NCBI GenBank assembly: GCA_038824665.1
Contig: JAWBBK010000001.1
Span: forward strand, 288,001-352,000
Source: Acidilobaceae archaeon
GTDB lineage: Archaea; Thermoproteota; Thermoprotei_A; Sulfolobales; Acidilobaceae
Direction of reading: 5' to 3'
DNA length: 64,000 nucleotides
The position numbers were made by a program, and so were the translations under genes. Shown piece after piece: positions 34,317 to 46,323 of the stretch. Position 1 is the first letter of the stretch; each line of letters begins with the position of its first letter. The notes below the pieces were generated by a model that worked only from the letters and a program-made list of their open reading frames with translations, searched no databases and was not told the DNA's origin.

Positions 34317-35602
34317 TTCAACTCACCTACTATAGAGGACAAATGTAACTCAAATCCCTCTTCTTTCGCTAAAGGCTCTACTGCTTGAGCTATTCTCTTC
34401 AAAGCCCCACCGTTATCTAGAACTTTCACGCGTCTTCTGAGAGCCAAGAAGTCAAGTGCTGAAAGTCCTCCTCTCCATCGAGCCCATCCTGAAGTAGGCA
34501 GTATGTGGTTAGCTCCAGAGTAATAATCATTGATAGCTGTTGAAACACAACCTTCCACAAGGACTCCGTAGTTTTCAAACGCGTCTGCGAGTTCTAAGGA
34601 GTCACTGCAGACCTCGAGATGTTCTGGAGCTATGAGGTTTATCAGCTCAAAGGCTAGCTCTTTGTTTTTAGCGATAGCTAATTTAGGAGTGCTCAGCTTC
34701 TTTCCACTTGATCTTCTTAAAAACTCTTTATATGCGTCAGCAACCTTCTGGGCTATCTCCGCATCTGTAGTTATAAGAGCTACAGCTGAAGACTCTCCAT
34801 GCTCAGCTTGTGCTAAGAGGTGAAGAGCGATCTCGCGTTCAACACCTTTTTTGTCAACATAGACTACCAGCTCTGTTGGTCCTGCCAGCAAGTCTATACC
34901 TACATCGCGAGAGACCAAGATCTTAGCGGCTGTGTAATAAGGTCCTCCAGGTCCAGCTATCTTGGATACCTTTTCTACGCTTTCAGTCCCATAAGCTAAA
35001 GCGGCTACTCCATAAGCTCCTCCTAAAGCGTAAAGTCCATCAAAACCCGCTACCGCTAGAGAAGCCAGCAGACTTTTCCTTATGGATGCAGGAGGAGCAA
35101 ACGCTACTAGCTTCTTGACTCCAGCAGCCCTAGCAGCTACACCACACATGATGGCAGTCGATATGTATGGAGCAACAGCTCCAGGCACATAGCAGGCAAC
35201 GCTGTCTATCGGCTTAAGCTCTTCTATCACTATTACAGAACTATCTACAGCTATAGTCCAACGAGATCTTGAAAGAGCGGAAAGCGGTTCTTCTACTGCT
35301 TTGGCGCGCTCAGCTAGACCTTCAAGAGCTTCTAGAAGTCGTTTGTTTTCAGATCTTAAGGACTCACGAGCTTTTTCAAGCTTCTCTTTGCTTATATAGA
35401 TGTTTTCTCTGTCTAGTTCTACTTTATCCAGCTTTTTAGCATAGTCTATCAGAGCTTTGTCTCCTCGTTTTTTCACGTCGTAGACTATAGGCTTGACTAT
35501 CTCTATATATTTATCTATGTTCAGCTCTGAGCGAAAGAGTTTGACAAAAGCTTCTACGTCCTCTTTAGACGAGACTCTAAGTAGCTCCACGGGAGCTTTC
35601 AC
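34313..35602 (-). CDS. hisD: Histidinol dehydrogenase
   Basis: YVPG, GPG, AGPTE, AQAEH, APEHL, GANHILPT. Confidence 0.95.
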   Translation of the reverse strand: MKAPVELLRVSSKEDVEAFVKLFRSELNIDKYIEIVKPIVYDVKKRGDKALIDYAKKLDKVELDRENIYISKEKLEKARESLRSENKRLLEALEGLAERAKAVEEPLSALSRSRWTIAVDSSVIVIEELKPIDSVACYVPGAVAPYISTAIMCGVAARAAGVKKLVAFAPPASIRKSLLASLAVAGFDGLYALGGAYGVAALAYGTESVEKVSKIAGPGGPYYTAAKILVSRDVGIDLLAGPTELVVYVDKKGVEREIALHLLAQAEHGESSAVALITTDAEIAQKVADAYKEFLRRSSGKKLSTPKLAIAKNKELAFELINLIAPEHLEVCSDSLELADAFENYGVLVEGCVSTAINDYYSGANHILPTSGWARWRGGLSALDFLALRRRVKVLDNGGALKRIAQAVEPLAKEEGFELHLSSIVGELN

Positions 35603-36572
35603 CTAGTTCTTCTAGAGGGATCACGAGTTTAGGCTCATAGACTACAAGGCCTTGCGCTAAAGCTCTCAACAAAGGCATGAGCTTGATGAGGTCTTCCTTT
35701 CCTATCACAGTGTTTATTGCAACCCATTCCGGATCGGCTAGAGGGCTTATAGTTGGACTCTTTAAAGCAGGCAATGCTTTAAGCAACTTCTCTAAGTTAT
35801 CTTTCTTCACGTTCAGGAATACGTGATACTTCCCTTTAGCGTCTACAGCTCCCTTCATTATCGCTAAGAGGTCTAATATTCTCTCTCTTTTCTCTTTGTT
35901 TTTGAGACTCTCCTTATTAGCTATGAGCACAGCTTGAGACTCCATTACGACATCTATTATCTTTAAACCGTTGCTCTCTAGAGTAGTTCCTGTCTCAGAG
36001 ACGTCAATTATTGCGTCAGCTTCATCAGGAGGCTTAGCTTCAGTAGCGCCGAAAGATAAAATCACGCGAACCATATTGTTATCTCCCCATTTGCCCCAAG
36101 GGGTTACAATAAGAGGTCTCAAGGACCCATAGTATTTCTTATAGCTTTCTCTACTGGCTAGAAAGGTTGAAGAGACCACGAGATACTCTGACGATACTCT
36201 TAGAACTCTATTAGAACTTGCAAACTCTTCTATCAGTTCTTCAGCGTTCTCTATCTTCCACTCTTTAGGTATAGCTACGACCAGCTTAACTCTGCCTATA
36301 CCGAGTTCGAGGAGCTTCTCCACTTCGTTTTGAAGTCCGTGTTCGACGACCCAATCGATTCCAGTAATGCCTAAATCGTAAGATCCTTCGTAAACGTAAA
36401 GAGGTATCTCTTGAGGTCTTAAGATCTTAATGCAGATATCAGGATTACCTGCTAGAACCGGCTTATAGCTTCTCTCTCGACCTAGCAGTTGTAGCCCAGC
36501 TCTATCGAAGAACTCAAAGACAGACTTTTCAAGAGAGCCTTTCGGGATAGCAAGCTTAATACGACATGCAAT
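35577..36572 (-). CDS. hisG: ATP phosphoribosyltransferase, long form (no in-frame ATG/GTG/TTG at the true N-terminus; ATT candidate)
   Basis: The frame stays open 83 codons upstream of the track start and encodes KLAIPKGSL, LRPQEIP, DLGITGID; later GATEAK, D..ETGTTL, PTISPL. Confidence 0.92.
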   Translation of the reverse strand: MACRIKLAIPKGSLEKSVFEFFDRAGLQLLGRERSYKPVLAGNPDICIKILRPQEIPLYVYEGSYDLGITGIDWVVEHGLQNEVEKLLELGIGRVKLVVAIPKEWKIENAEELIEEFASSNRVLRVSSEYLVVSSTFLASRESYKKYYGSLRPLIVTPWGKWGDNNMVRVILSFGATEAKPPDEADAIIDVSETGTTLESNGLKIIDVVMESQAVLIANKESLKNKEKRERILDLLAIMKGAVDAKGKYHVFLNVKKDNLEKLLKALPALKSPTISPLADPEWVAINTVIGKEDLIKLMPLLRALAQGLVVYEPKLVIPLEELGESSRGAT

Positions 36573-36735
36573 AACTGATCACCTCCACACTTAGAGAGGA
36601 GAACGGCCCTCTAACGACCGAAGTCCTCTCAGAACTCTCGCTAGATTTTATTCCGAGAACTGGGTTGAGATCTGTCTTAGTGAATACACATCATCTCAAC
36701 CGACCCACTCTAAACCCTCTCGAAGCTTATATATC
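36573..36735 (-). promoter_or_regulatory. his operon promoter and structured 5' leader with uORFs
   Basis: TATATAAG at ~36726-36733, three inverted repeats, uORFs MGRLR* and MMCIH*, SD GGAGGTGA at 36579-36586. Confidence 0.6.
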
Positions 36736-36745
36736 TTTCTCTTGA

Positions 36746-37393
36746 TTAGCTCTTAACGATACTCAAAACTTCTAATACCTTCAATAGCTCGTCGTACTTC
36801 ATCTGTCCTGGAGCGGTAGGCTCATCTACGTACGAGTATATTAGTTTAGAGCCTAGAAGACCGAAAGCTAGTCTTTCCCAGGGGCTAGACCCTATCGGCA
36901 TAACGGCTACGTTGTCATAACCTAAGTCTAAAACCTGAGAGAGCAGACTCTTATAACCTGGCGCAGTTACAACAGCTATCTTCACACAAAAAGCGGAGCT
37001 AGCATATCTCTCGACTGTGCTCAAAACCTCTCTTGCGGTTGGAACTCTGTCTAGATAATGAGCTGACACTATTTTCTCTTCATAAACTACGTTGTGAGAT
37101 TTGAGGAACGATACCTCTACATCGTACATGATCCCCAAGTCATGAAGTCTGTTGAGATATGCAGTCTTTACTTCTGGGCTTAGAGGGTTTACTCCTCCTT
37201 CAGCTACATCTCTTAAAGTCGCTATGATCGGTCTCTTTACAAGCGCTAGAACTTCTGGAGGAATGCTTTCTAGATCCTTCATATAGTCAAGTCTCAGCTC
37301 TACGTAGTCAGGTCCTTTAACGCTTTCTACCTTCACTACGTCTGCGTAAGATCTGACAGGCTTAGAAGCTACGACCAAAGGTCTTCTACTCAA
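36746..37393 (-). CDS. aroD: 3-dehydroquinate dehydratase type I
   Basis: VELRLD, TLR...EGG, SAH, VKIA, TAPGQ. Confidence 0.9.
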   Translation of the reverse strand: MSRRPLVVASKPVRSYADVVKVESVKGPDYVELRLDYMKDLESIPPEVLALVKRPIIATLRDVAEGGVNPLSPEVKTAYLNRLHDLGIMYDVEVSFLKSHNVVYEEKIVSAHYLDRVPTAREVLSTVERYASSAFCVKIAVVTAPGYKSLLSQVLDLGYDNVAVMPIGSSPWERLAFGLLGSKLIYSYVDEPTAPGQMKYDELLKVLEVLSIVKS

Positions 37394-44442: not shown

Positions 44443-45379
44443 GTTCTCTCACCCTTAGAACTGCGTCGATTATGTTCTTCTTTCCTAAGCCGTAGAACTC
44501 TATGAGGTCTTCAGGAGACTTCGCTGACCTTCCGAACTGTCTGGTGCCTAACATCTCCATCGGTACTGGATACTTTCTGACTAACACTTCAGCTACAGCC
44601 GATCCTAGTCCTCCGTATAGACTATGTTCTTCTACTGTCACTACTGCTCCCACCTTCTGAGCTACTTTCAACAACAAGTCCTCATCGAGAGGCTTCACAG
44701 TATGCATGTTGATAACCGCTACGCTAAGACCCATTTCTCGTTTCAGCTCTTCTGAAGCCTTAAGAGCGCTCCACAATATCGTTCCAGCACCTATCACTGC
44801 AACATCATATCCTTCAGTCAACACTTCAGCTCTACCGACAGTGAAGTCTTCATCACGATCACAAGTTATGGGAGGAGAGTAGTCTCGACCGACTCTATAG
44901 TACCCTGGTCCCTTAAGGCTTACCACCTTGTGAAGACTTTTTGAGACCTGACAAGCGTCTGCTGGAACCACTACTGTCATGTTAGGCAGAACTCTCATTA
45001 AAGCTAGGTCTTCAAGAGCTTGATGACTCGAACCGTCTGCGCTGTTACTAAACCCCGCGTGAGTGCCGACGAGCTTGACGTTGAGATTCATGCGCACCAC
45101 GGTGTTTCTTATCTGTTCCCATGCTCTCATCAAGAACACAGCAAAGGCAACTACGATAGGCTTCATGCCTAGAGCGGCTAGACCGGCAGCGAACGTTACA
45201 GCATGTTGTTCAGCTATGCCTACGTTGAAGTACCTTTCAGGATATCTTTCGAAAAACCTGATCGCTCTCGTGGCTTCTCCAACGTCGGCAGTCACTACTA
45301 CAACGTCTTCGTCTGTTTCTCCTAGGTCCGCTAACGCTCTTCCTAAGGCTTCACGCATAGAGTAGAGCCTCTCTGACAA
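44426..45379 (-). CDS. Transketolase C-terminal subunit
   Basis: NVGIAEQ, RAWEQIR, DGSSHQ, EEH...GGLGS. Confidence 0.94.
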   Translation of the reverse strand: MSERLYSMREALGRALADLGETDEDVVVVTADVGEATRAIRFFERYPERYFNVGIAEQHAVTFAAGLAALGMKPIVVAFAVFLMRAWEQIRNTVVRMNLNVKLVGTHAGFSNSADGSSHQALEDLALMRVLPNMTVVVPADACQVSKSLHKVVSLKGPGYYRVGRDYSPPITCDRDEDFTVGRAEVLTEGYDVAVIGAGTILWSALKASEELKREMGLSVAVINMHTVKPLDEDLLLKVAQKVGAVVTVEEHSLYGGLGSAVAEVLVRKYPVPMEMLGTRQFGRSAKSPEDLIEFYGLGKKNIIDAVLRVRERAGRA

Positions 45380-46160
45380 CGTCTACACCCGGTCTCTGAA
45401 CGCTTTTACCCTCAAGAGCTGGAACTCCCTTCATGCGAGTAGTCAGAGCGAAGATCACTGTAGGAGAGTCTGAGTGAAGAGCTCTACTAAGAGCTCTATC
45501 TATGCTCTTTATATCATGTCCATCGCAAACCAATACGTTCCACCCTATGGACTGCCAGACCAAAGGCATATAGTGTTTGGGTTTGACCTTGTCGATAGGA
45601 CCGTCAAGCTGATTGTTGTTGTAATCTACTATGACAACTAGATTGTTTAGCTTTCTGTACGCAGCGTGCGTAATGGCTTCCCAGACTTCTCCCTCGTCTT
45701 GCTCTCCGTCACCCATGATGACATAGACTCTACCTTTACCTTTTCTCATCTTTATAGCTGTAGCTAAGCCGACAGCGAAGCTTAGTCCTTGAGCAAGACT
45801 TCCCGTTGAGGCATCTACGCCAGGTATGCTGATTTCTGGATGTCCTTGAAGTATGCCATTTATTTTGTGCATCTTGTAGAGCTCTTCTTCAGGGATCACT
45901 CCAAGCTCAGCTAACGCTATATAGAGAGTCGGAGCAGCATGACCTTTGCTGAGAACGAACCTATCGCGGTCAATAGCGCTTCCGTCTCTTTTCACATACT
46001 TGAACATAACGACCGTCAATATCTCAACAACGCTTAGAGACGAGCCTAAATGTATAGCCTGATCTATTAAGTAGAGTTCTAAAAGCTTCCTTCTTATCCT
46101 TCTTGCTATTAGCTCAAGAAAACCAACATCTAGAGACGGACTACTCGATATTGGCGGAAT
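45351..46160 (-). CDS. Transketolase N-terminal subunit (no in-frame canonical start at the true N-terminus)
   Basis: IHLGSSLSVVEI upstream of the track start; DRFVLSKGH, LQGHP, TGSLAQG, GDGE..EG..WE. Confidence 0.92.
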   Translation of the reverse strand: MPPISSSPSLDVGFLELIARRIRRKLLELYLIDQAIHLGSSLSVVEILTVVMFKYVKRDGSAIDRDRFVLSKGHAAPTLYIALAELGVIPEEELYKMHKINGILQGHPEISIPGVDASTGSLAQGLSFAVGLATAIKMRKGKGRVYVIMGDGEQDEGEVWEAITHAAYRKLNNLVVIVDYNNNQLDGPIDKVKPKHYMPLVWQSIGWNVLVCDGHDIKSIDRALSRALHSDSPTVIFALTTRMKGVPALEGKSVQRPGVDVVREALLYA

Positions 46161-46203
46161 TCCATCCCTTCGAACCCTCTATAGTGGGTAGCTTCGTCTG
46201 AGC

Positions 46204-46323
46204 TTTAAATATTTTTCTCTGTTTTTAGGAGGACAGAGAATCCGGAAAGCGGACTCACAAAAAGCTAGAGGCAGACTGGTGGGTTTCTGAGACCTCTGAG
46301 CCTTCCTAAAGACGGGAGGTCTC
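46204..46323 (-). promoter_or_regulatory. 3' hairpin/T-tract of the purA operon and promoter of the tkt-aro operon
   Basis: GAGACCTC/GAGGTCTC stem at 46289-46323, minus-strand T5 run, TTCTCTGT-N10-ACAGAGAA at 46215-46240, TTTAAA at 46204-46209. Confidence 0.45.

Follow-up and report, generated by a model that had tools for sequence, protein, structure and literature searches.

The histidine biosynthesis (his) operon of an Acidilobaceae archaeon, which we analyzed in a 64,000-nucleotide (nt) stretch of contig JAWBBK010000001.1 (the whole of which we call the window), is preceded by a five-codon upstream open reading frame (uORF) whose only histidine codon is its last. Comparison across genomes shows that a conserved, promoter-proximal short open reading frame (ORF) with an in-frame His codon has been kept or re-invented in many archaeal his leaders. 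We lean toward reading the five-codon ORF as a ribosome-based gauge of charged tRNA-His, which would raise his expression when a ribosome stalls on it. An earlier note on this DNA had proposed a His-codon leader ORF downstream of the his promoter, together with a switchable RNA structure. Its core idea held up, in that such an ORF recurs ahead of hisG in several archaeal lineages, with His always in frame. The observation is real, and its uORF part is well supported by comparison while its RNA-switch part is not; as a regulatory device, the leader remains a prediction from sequence.

Two short ORFs had been read in the leader, of which only uORF2 belongs to the conserved element:

36677..36694, minus strand: leader ORF (uORF2), ATG ATG TGT ATT CAC TAA (MMCIH*), conserved and identical in G001, a genome of the same genus

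36691..36708, minus strand: uORF1, GTG GGT CGG TTG AGA TGA (MGRLR*), not conserved and probably no gene

The leader ORF lies at 36694-36677 as claimed, with its single His codon (CAC) at 36682-36680 and the stop directly after it, and it is conserved in relatives. The GTG of uORF1 at 36708 and its ATGA overlap with uORF2 are both present as well, but uORF1 itself is not kept: its GTG is GCG in G001, where the frame holds no other start, and it is absent from the remaining close leaders.

The close hisG loci comprise G001 (HisG 78% identical to that of the window), the metagenome contigs L023-L027 (68-69%), and the species genomes L109-L112 and L115 (68-70%). The relatives with the same leader are metagenome-assembled genomes (MAGs) labelled Acidilobaceae, Sulfolobales, and Desulfurococcales. 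All 13 loci of the close group, near-identical copies counted, carry the uORF; with such copies removed, eight distinct leaders remain, the window leader included. Their alignment contains two sharp conserved islands besides the TATA box and a G-rich Shine-Dalgarno (SD) sequence, namely the uORF block and a block at the hisG start, and the remaining leader is unalignable. In the uORF block, GATG[T/C]GTATTCAC, 12 of 13 positions are invariant, and the stop codon follows 0 or 1 codon later. The window and G001 share MMCIH*, while L023 and L112 have ATG TGT ATT CAC TAG (MCIH*), L027 has ATG CGT ATT CAC TAG (MRIH*), and L109, L110, and L115 have ATG TGT ATT CAC ACC TAG (MCIHT*), in which the extra codon is a 3-nt insertion, so that the frame is kept. 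His is therefore the last sense codon in five of the eight close leaders and the penultimate one in the other three. The uORF motif is found once in the 1.1-Mb genome of the window, which speaks against a regulon-wide operator. An exact 19-mer scan of genome contigs returned six matches, one of them archaeal (a MAG labelled Acidilobaceae) and five bacterial, which we take as chance.

Related leader ORFs also occur in distant archaea. An alignment search with two HisG proteins 50-52% identical to that of the window (L028, L029) led to 20 further loci; the distant set consists of the 23 loci with enough upstream sequence, with L187 and L030 left out because they are cut off and L031 being a duplicate of L114. 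A related uORF stands ahead of hisG in 20 of these 23 loci, which come from MAGs and metagenomes and, where named, are mostly labelled Bathyarchaeia, with some Thorarchaeota or Nitrososphaeria. In these 20, an SD-preceded short ORF reads NTG AGG GAT TGC GTT CAY (M-R-D-C-V-H), with a TATA box ~45 nt ahead. The start codon varies among ATG, GTG, and TTG. Where the homologous start codon has become CTG or CTA (L176, L175), a GTG or TTG lies in frame exactly one codon upstream, and in L180, whose first unit is cut short by an early stop, a new ATG brings the CAT of a second unit into frame. The stop follows His directly in three distant loci (MREYVH* twice, MRDSIH*), and the rest extend up to ~20 codons. 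The second unit is a general feature of the distant leaders L171-L189, L028, and L029, in which the uORF motif AGGGATTGCGTTCAY recurs exactly 19 nt further downstream as AGGCGATTGCGTTCAY, ~120-220 nt ahead of hisG. A +1 shift would bring this second copy into frame.

We also inspected ten further genomes of the same order as the host that have other HisG types. In four of them hisG directly follows hisC and is leaderless; six have a leader of their own, and in four of these six a short ORF with one or more His codons stands ahead of hisG. G010 encodes ATG TGC GTT CAC GAC TAG (MCVHD*) 182 nt ahead of hisG, and G025 encodes ATG AGC CGG GTT CAC CGC TAG (MSRVHR*) 68 nt ahead of it; in both, His is the penultimate sense codon. 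G013 and G023 (L016 and L019, both at 1394-1510) have a 38-codon ORF, MAHHRHHSG..., in which four of the first seven codons are His. This ORF overlaps the hisG start by its last 22 nt, its two ends are conserved between the two genomes while the middle has diverged, and the two copies differ by a synonymous CAC/CAT change.

Across these designs (MMCIH, MCVHD, MSRVHR, MRDCVH, MAHHRHH), His is the sole residue common to all. The His codon follows the start codon at 6 to 24 nt, a distance divisible by three in every case, and start codons change in identity and position while the His codon remains in frame. The chief reason for thinking that ribosomes read this ORF, and that its His codon is important, is that every design includes His and keeps it in frame. 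Indirect support for translation comes from the switching of start codons and the preservation of the frame. We infer that the uORF is translated, that a ribosome stalls at CAC, and the sign of the resulting effect.

The leader occupies a short gap between two operons of the 1.1-Mb assembly (10 contigs, 83% complete). On the minus strand of the window, an aromatic amino-acid (aro) operon running from a split transketolase through aroD ends at the aroD stop (TAA, 36748-36746); after a 185-nt gap come hisG-hisD-hisC-hisB-hisA-hisF-hisI on the same strand. We predict that the his operon has its own promoter inside this gap:

36726..36740, minus strand: predicted archaeal promoter, with purine-rich AGAAAGA resembling a transcription factor B recognition element and TATA box TATATAAG at 36733-36726

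36708..36720, minus strand: conserved block AGAGGGTTTAGAG around the predicted transcription start site (TSS), between the TATA box and the uORF, kept in the same-genus genome G001

The TATA box that the earlier note had placed at ~36726-36733 is indeed read there, as TATATAAG, and all eight close leaders have a TATA-like box 30-35 nt ahead of the uORF ATG. With the TSS placed by the usual archaeal TATA spacing, the uORF ATG would begin ~10-14 nt past it in the window and roughly 8-14 nt past it across the close leaders. A conserved short ORF with the cognate codon between promoter and first gene is the general mark of a leader peptide, and it is what the his leader contains. Contigs from other hot-spring metagenome runs differ from the window by single bases at 36447 (A>G), 36606 (G>A), and 36815 (G>T; all on the plus strand), none of which touches the uORF or the hisG start.

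In the reading that we favor, a ribosome facing scarce His-tRNA would wait with CAC in its A site, parked at the extreme 5' end of the mRNA, whereas with plentiful His-tRNA it would be done and gone within five codons. The parked ribosome would raise expression of the his operon, possibly by shielding the 5' end from 5'-to-3' exonucleolytic decay and thereby prolonging the life of the whole his mRNA. In Bacillus, ermC mRNA is stabilized in this manner by a ribosome stalled near its 5' end. Shielding as the output step is a guess by analogy, and we hold it to be doubtful; it is favored here because no conserved downstream structure was found and because the ORF hugs the 5' end. The genome contains two beta-CASP open frames, of 667 and 426 amino acids (aa), the smaller being the size of aCPSF2. 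In reports on Sulfolobus, aCPSF2 is described as a 5'-to-3' exoribonuclease (PMC3792030), and aIF2-gamma is described as protecting 5' ends in Sulfolobus solfataricus (PMC3936769). In G013 and G023, ribosomes translating the leader might instead occlude hisG initiation, as an alternative design.

The earlier note had proposed a different output, a translational attenuator of the ermC/cat type in which stalling re-pairs 36651-36659 with 36626-36634 and an anti-SD at 36595-36602 controls the hisG SD. The features concerned are as follows:

36663..36701, minus strand: perfect 9-base-pair (bp) hairpin enclosing the leader ORF, GGTTGAGAT (36701-36693) with ATCTCAACC (36671-36663), present but not conserved

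36593..36634, minus strand: purine and pyrimidine runs (GAGAGGA, AGAGGG, UCUCCUCUCU) of the proposed anti-SD hairpin and alternative helix, unalignable in relatives

36579..36586, minus strand: hisG Shine-Dalgarno sequence GGAGGTGA, with a G-rich SD (GG.GG.G) in 8/8 close leaders

All of the proposed helices can be drawn in the window. The 9-bp hairpin around uORF2 is present at its coordinates, as is the hairpin of GAGAGGA (36630-36624) with TCCTCTC (36600-36594); the alternative helix TTCTCGGAA (36659-36651) with TTCTGAGAG (36634-36626) can form if G-U pairs are included; and the anti-SD TCTCCTCT (36602-36595) can pair with the SD (36586-36579) with one mismatch. The 9-bp stem is also somewhat unusual, since a perfect stem of at least 9 bp (loop 3-40) arises in only 24 of 1000 dinucleotide shuffles of the 174-nt leader (2.4%). 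None of these helices is conserved, however. Their regions are unalignable or absent in relatives, even in comparison with G001. That genome does have a CU-rich run and a hairpin around its uORF, but the hairpin is imperfect and of different sequence; other lineages have none at this place, and the CU-rich box that would serve as the anti-SD is missing from the other close lineages. One of the single-base variants, at 36606, falls inside the proposed anti-SD hairpin.

Folding calculations likewise give the switch no support. The window leader has a minimum free energy of -52.7 kcal/mol, whereas shuffles average -50.8 kcal/mol (z = -0.49) and a fold as good or better is reached by 60 of 200 of them; the consensus fold of the eight close leaders reaches -4.1 kcal/mol with trivial pairs only. 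A stalled ribosome was simulated by keeping ~29 nt surrounding the His codon single-stranded in partition-function folding at 37 and 70 °C, a calculation that describes equilibrium only. With the uORF masked in this way, a check that the earlier note had suggested, the predicted accessibility of the SD in the window went from 0.54 to 0.57 (37 °C) and from 0.68 to 0.71 (70 °C), shifts that fall inside the range given by control masks at other positions. The same held for the start region and for the other seven close leaders, so predicted accessibility of the hisG SD and start was unchanged in 8/8, and the 20 distant leaders gave no consistent gain. Conservation in relatives came out divided: the His codon is kept and the helices are not. 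With ordinary folding, unconserved helices, and masking without effect, we regard a switch that frees an anti-SD against the hisG SD as very improbable.

Searches for other structures gave similar results. The uORF can be drawn as pairing directly with the region of hisG initiation (UCACU:GGUGA plus AUGUGUA:UGCAUGU), at -13.3 kcal/mol in the window, with 8% of shuffles doing as well; in G001 the pairing is worse than in shuffles, and across the eight close leaders the fraction of shuffles as good runs from 0.04 to 0.74, so we rejected it as unsupported. There is no consistent oligo-T terminator in the close leaders (a T4 run in 1/8, T5 in 0/8). No Rfam family matches window positions 36300-37000 at E values up to 10, and 15 related loci gave no match at the gathering score. 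For the tandem repeat of the distant group, a complementary partner was sought, with a mean z of -0.36 against shuffled targets; a weak consensus hairpin with CAY in its loop (-3.0 kcal/mol) has a double change in only two of nine pairs. By eye, a CCCUCA box complementary to the uORF start region recurs in this group. A C/D-box small RNA reading of GAUGAUGUG was rejected because no D, C', or D' boxes were seen by eye at the right spacing. Taken together, the fold tests, the lack of oligo-T, and the lack of Rfam matches support neither a bacterial-type terminator nor an SD-sequestering switch.

Several points weigh against the histidine gauge. Three of the 23 distant loci lack the uORF (L190, L113, L114), and among the six same-order genomes with a hisG leader, G037 has no such ORF and G032 is ambiguous. 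The TSS is predicted, translation of the uORF is unproven, and the mRNA-shielding step is guessed from analogy. Measured against bacterial leaders, one His codon makes a weak sensor, and the folding, pairing, and oligo-T searches found no structure, terminator, or complementarity joining the uORF to hisG expression. Finally, the nucleotides are conserved more tightly than coding requires. Within the close group, TGT, ATT, and CAC never vary synonymously, although HisG has diverged by ~30%; every group has NTT (GTT, ATT, or CTT) as the codon ahead of His; and the second copy of the 14-nt motif in the distant leaders is out of frame, yet it is retained even where the uORF has already ended (L173, L177, L178), so decoding does not account for all of the conservation. 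The NTT codon, the second copy, and the missing synonymous changes indicate that the nucleotides themselves are under some constraint.

Such a constraint would be expected if the motif, ..UG[C/U]GU(A)UUCAY, were read as RNA or DNA by a trans-acting factor, with the ORF incidental or secondary. Candidates are a histidine-responsive RNA-binding protein, a repressor binding just past the TSS, or tRNA-His itself, because UUCAY is, by reasoning alone, complementary to anticodon-loop positions 34-38 of a tRNA with a GUG anticodon. The direct repeat with its 19-nt period also fits such a factor, with the last position of the second copy, too, being C or U only. The behavior of the reading frame is harder to reconcile with it: the start varies only among ATG, GTG, and TTG and is replaced in frame where it is lost (L175, L176, L180), the spacing between start and CAY differs by design but in whole codons, and in G013 and G023 four His codons stand in a sequence of another kind. 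In addition, with one motif in the genome no regulon is visible, no conserved regulator gene was seen adjoining these operons, whose neighbors differ, and no Rfam family, T-box included, matches. We therefore judge recognition by a trans factor to be unlikely as the main explanation.

The second conserved island lies at the start of hisG, where the first gene of the operon appears to begin in an unusual way:

36565..36574, minus strand: hisG-start block TTATTGCATG, 10/10 positions invariant in 8/8 close leaders

35577..36572, minus strand: hisG, ATP phosphoribosyltransferase, first gene of the his operon, with a probable AUU start at 36572-36570

36556..36567, minus strand: mini-ORF of three codons, ATG TCG TAT TAA, overlapping the first hisG codons out of frame with them, conserved

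The earlier note had assumed a hisG start adjoining the SD, which failed. The block TTATTGCATG offers one start-like codon per frame (ATT at 36572-36570, TTG at 36571-36569, ATG at 36567-36565), and only the ATT is in frame with hisG, the TTG and the ATG both being out of frame. The hisG frame, open from 36578, has no ATG, GTG, or TTG between the TGA inside the SD (36581-36579) and the GTG at 36323; that GTG lies 85 codons into the open frame and ~80 into the conserved protein. This stretch contains no indels in contigs from three DNA runs of two studies, and the agreement of independent contigs indicates that the missing start is not an assembly error. ATT GCA TG[T/C] occurs in the hisG frame 6-7 nt past the SD in all eight close leaders (6 nt in the window), and differences in this frame are a synonymous TGT/TGC change followed by conservative L/F/R, V/I, and K/R exchanges. 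The N-terminus read from AUU is M-A-C-x-[VI]-[KR]-L-A-I-P, of the same length as in relatives with ATG starts. We conclude that hisG probably starts at the conserved AUU at 36572-36570.

The mini-ORF recurs as the pattern ATG-N3-NNT-TA[AG] at the same place in 8/8 close leaders, with two variable middle codons and its end inside hisG codons 5-6, and we read it as a putative conserved competitor of the AUU start. Initiation at a weak AUU in competition with the overlapping AUG may set a low basal expression of hisG. A programmed +1 frameshift from the mini-ORF into hisG was considered, since a homocitrate-synthase-like gene shows the same layout; it was rejected because there is genome-wide no excess of +1 over -1 overlapping mini-ORFs and because the substitutions fit coding from AUU. 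Near-cognate initiation sites are described in a ribosome profiling study of Haloferax (PMC7261190). Among 711 gene pairs conserved between the genome of the window (G000) and G001, ~8% per genome have at least 10 conserved residues ahead of the first ATG, GTG, or TTG in frame. Such odd starts include an HMGL-like gene (G000 C5, ~52635), the N-terminal part of transketolase (window 45351-46150), and hisG; in the homocitrate-synthase-like gene, GTG GTG GT[CT] TAG stands in frame just ahead of the conserved N-terminus in both genomes. These regions suggest frequent non-canonical initiation or another decoding oddity in the lineage. Because hisG and some other genes of the lineage lack a canonical start at their true N-terminus, ORF callers will truncate them.

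A possible parallel to the his leader was observed ahead of the aro operon. Just past the promoter of this operon (TATA box ~46200-46212), at 46130-46165 on the minus strand, lies the short ORF ATG GAA TTC CGC CAA TAT CGA GTA GTC CGT CTC TAG (MEFRQYRVVRL*). G001 encodes MEFRQYLAL* there, with the first 18 nt identical to those of the window. Its Phe and Tyr codons would parallel the His codon ahead of hisG; the transketolase frame, however, is open across this leader and the gene has no canonical start, so the conservation could be partly coding. A pattern search for the aro leader (up to two mismatches) matched 8 of 151 genomes against 14 for the reversed control, and none of the four matches inspected stands ahead of aro genes. 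AGAGGGTT also precedes the aro-leader uORF in the window, and AGAGGG(T/G)(T/G) recurs shortly ahead of the short ORFs of the his leader (36708-36720), the aro leader (46172-46180), and the homocitrate-synthase-like leader (G000 C5, HMGL-like gene); it could serve these ORFs as an SD or be an element near the promoter. When G000 and G001 were compared for conserved small ORFs ahead of orthologous genes, most hits turned out to be tRNA genes, and an apparent MSYMR ahead of a LysX-like gene was dismissed as an out-of-frame reading of lysW.

It could also be that the his uORF is translated but has no histidine-specific role, serving as a generic 5' element for ribosome loading, basal expression, or transcript protection, with the His codon a historical accident carried along with conserved sequence. 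The single His codon, the conservation at the nucleotide level, and the absence of a structure coupling uORF and hisG are all compatible with this, and the ~8% of conserved genes with odd start regions in the host genome and G001 indicate that unusual initiation may be common in the lineage. A generic element, on the other hand, would not explain why His is the one residue shared by all designs, why the element is found only ahead of hisG in its own genome, or why the leader ORF of the aromatic operon has Phe and Tyr codons instead. We consider it quite improbable, and the histidine gauge remains our preferred reading.

Extended beyond the window, this reading would have minimal leader ORFs, 4-9 codons long, form a family that occurs in several classes of Thermoproteota and gauges His-tRNA by one codon at the 5' end, with neither a terminator nor an SD hairpin. 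We put this forward tentatively, as possible though not probable. The predicted core is [C/R]-[V/I/L]-His, with the stop within 0-1 codon in the shortest forms. The family may act through ribosome shielding against 5'-to-3' decay, or through the invariant NUU-CAY context together with the AUU start and mini-ORF conserved at hisG; by either route it would be an archaeal mode of attenuation unlike any of the bacterial types.

Attenuation by way of the ribosome is familiar from textbooks as a bacterial mechanism, and to our knowledge, the known cases of amino-acid operon regulation in archaea rely on transcription factors. A search of the full-text literature, which does not extend to supplementary files such as archaeal Ribo-seq tables, turned up no description of a leader peptide or attenuator for histidine in archaea. 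In the portions consulted, a review of histidine biosynthesis mentions archaea for the pathway itself only (PMC3896937), and a paper on uORF annotation makes the general statement that uORFs act in archaea (PMC10219788). If the gauge is real, archaea too use the translating ribosome as an amino-acid sensor, in a stripped-down design that is unable to work via bacterial terminator logic. The leader would also offer a small, concrete element for studying how translation, transcription, and mRNA decay are coupled in archaea.

Among known systems, the enterobacterial hisL attenuator (RF00514, His_leader) shares with this leader a short ORF between promoter and hisG with codons for the end product, and a presumed sensor in the ribosome awaiting His-tRNA; G013 and G023 even place four His within their first seven codons. 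In contrast, the ORF of the window is five codons long with one His, against 16 codons with seven consecutive His in hisL, multiple His codons (HHRHH) occur only in G013 and G023, and the close group, like the window, has a single CAC. The alternative 1:2, 2:3, and 3:4 hairpins, the hairpin-plus-U terminator, and the oligo-U tract are not found here, RF00514 does not match, and in this host both RNA polymerase and termination are archaeal. The translational attenuators of ermC, cat, and cmlA resemble what we propose for this leader, in that a ribosome stalled on a short leader peptide would change expression of the next gene without transcription termination. Those systems, however, sense drugs via the nascent peptide, and their SD lies in a defined hairpin that the stalled ribosome opens, whereas none is conserved or predicted here.

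TnaC, the fungal arginine attenuator peptide, and SpeFL offer another likeness, in that the regulatory codon adjoins the stop and the ribosome would be held at or just before termination. They are longer peptides that sense the free amino acid via a conserved nascent chain in the exit tunnel, and a peptide of 4-6 residues cannot reach the tunnel constriction. T-box riboswitches share a conserved His codon (CAY) in a leader ahead of an amino-acid operon, and the weak hairpin of the distant group loops its CAY; T-boxes are bacterial, and the leaders here have no Stem I, T-box sequence, terminator, or anti-terminator, no Rfam match, and a consensus fold around CAY of only -3.0 kcal/mol with almost no covariation. 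The cysteine-responsive short ORFs of mycobacteria are described, in the part of the report consulted, as attenuators at the extreme 5' end of polycistronic transcripts (bioRxiv 10.1101/834739). As described there, they are likewise very short 5'-end ORFs with codons for the amino acid of the downstream operon, but they are bacterial and leaderless, with runs of Cys codons. Stabilizers that act through a ribosome stalled at the 5' end of the mRNA call for a stall site only a few nucleotides from that end and for 5'-to-3' exonucleolytic decay in the host; as a candidate for this class, the leader has its uORF ~10-14 nt from the predicted TSS, and the genome contains a 426-aa beta-CASP frame consistent with aCPSF2.

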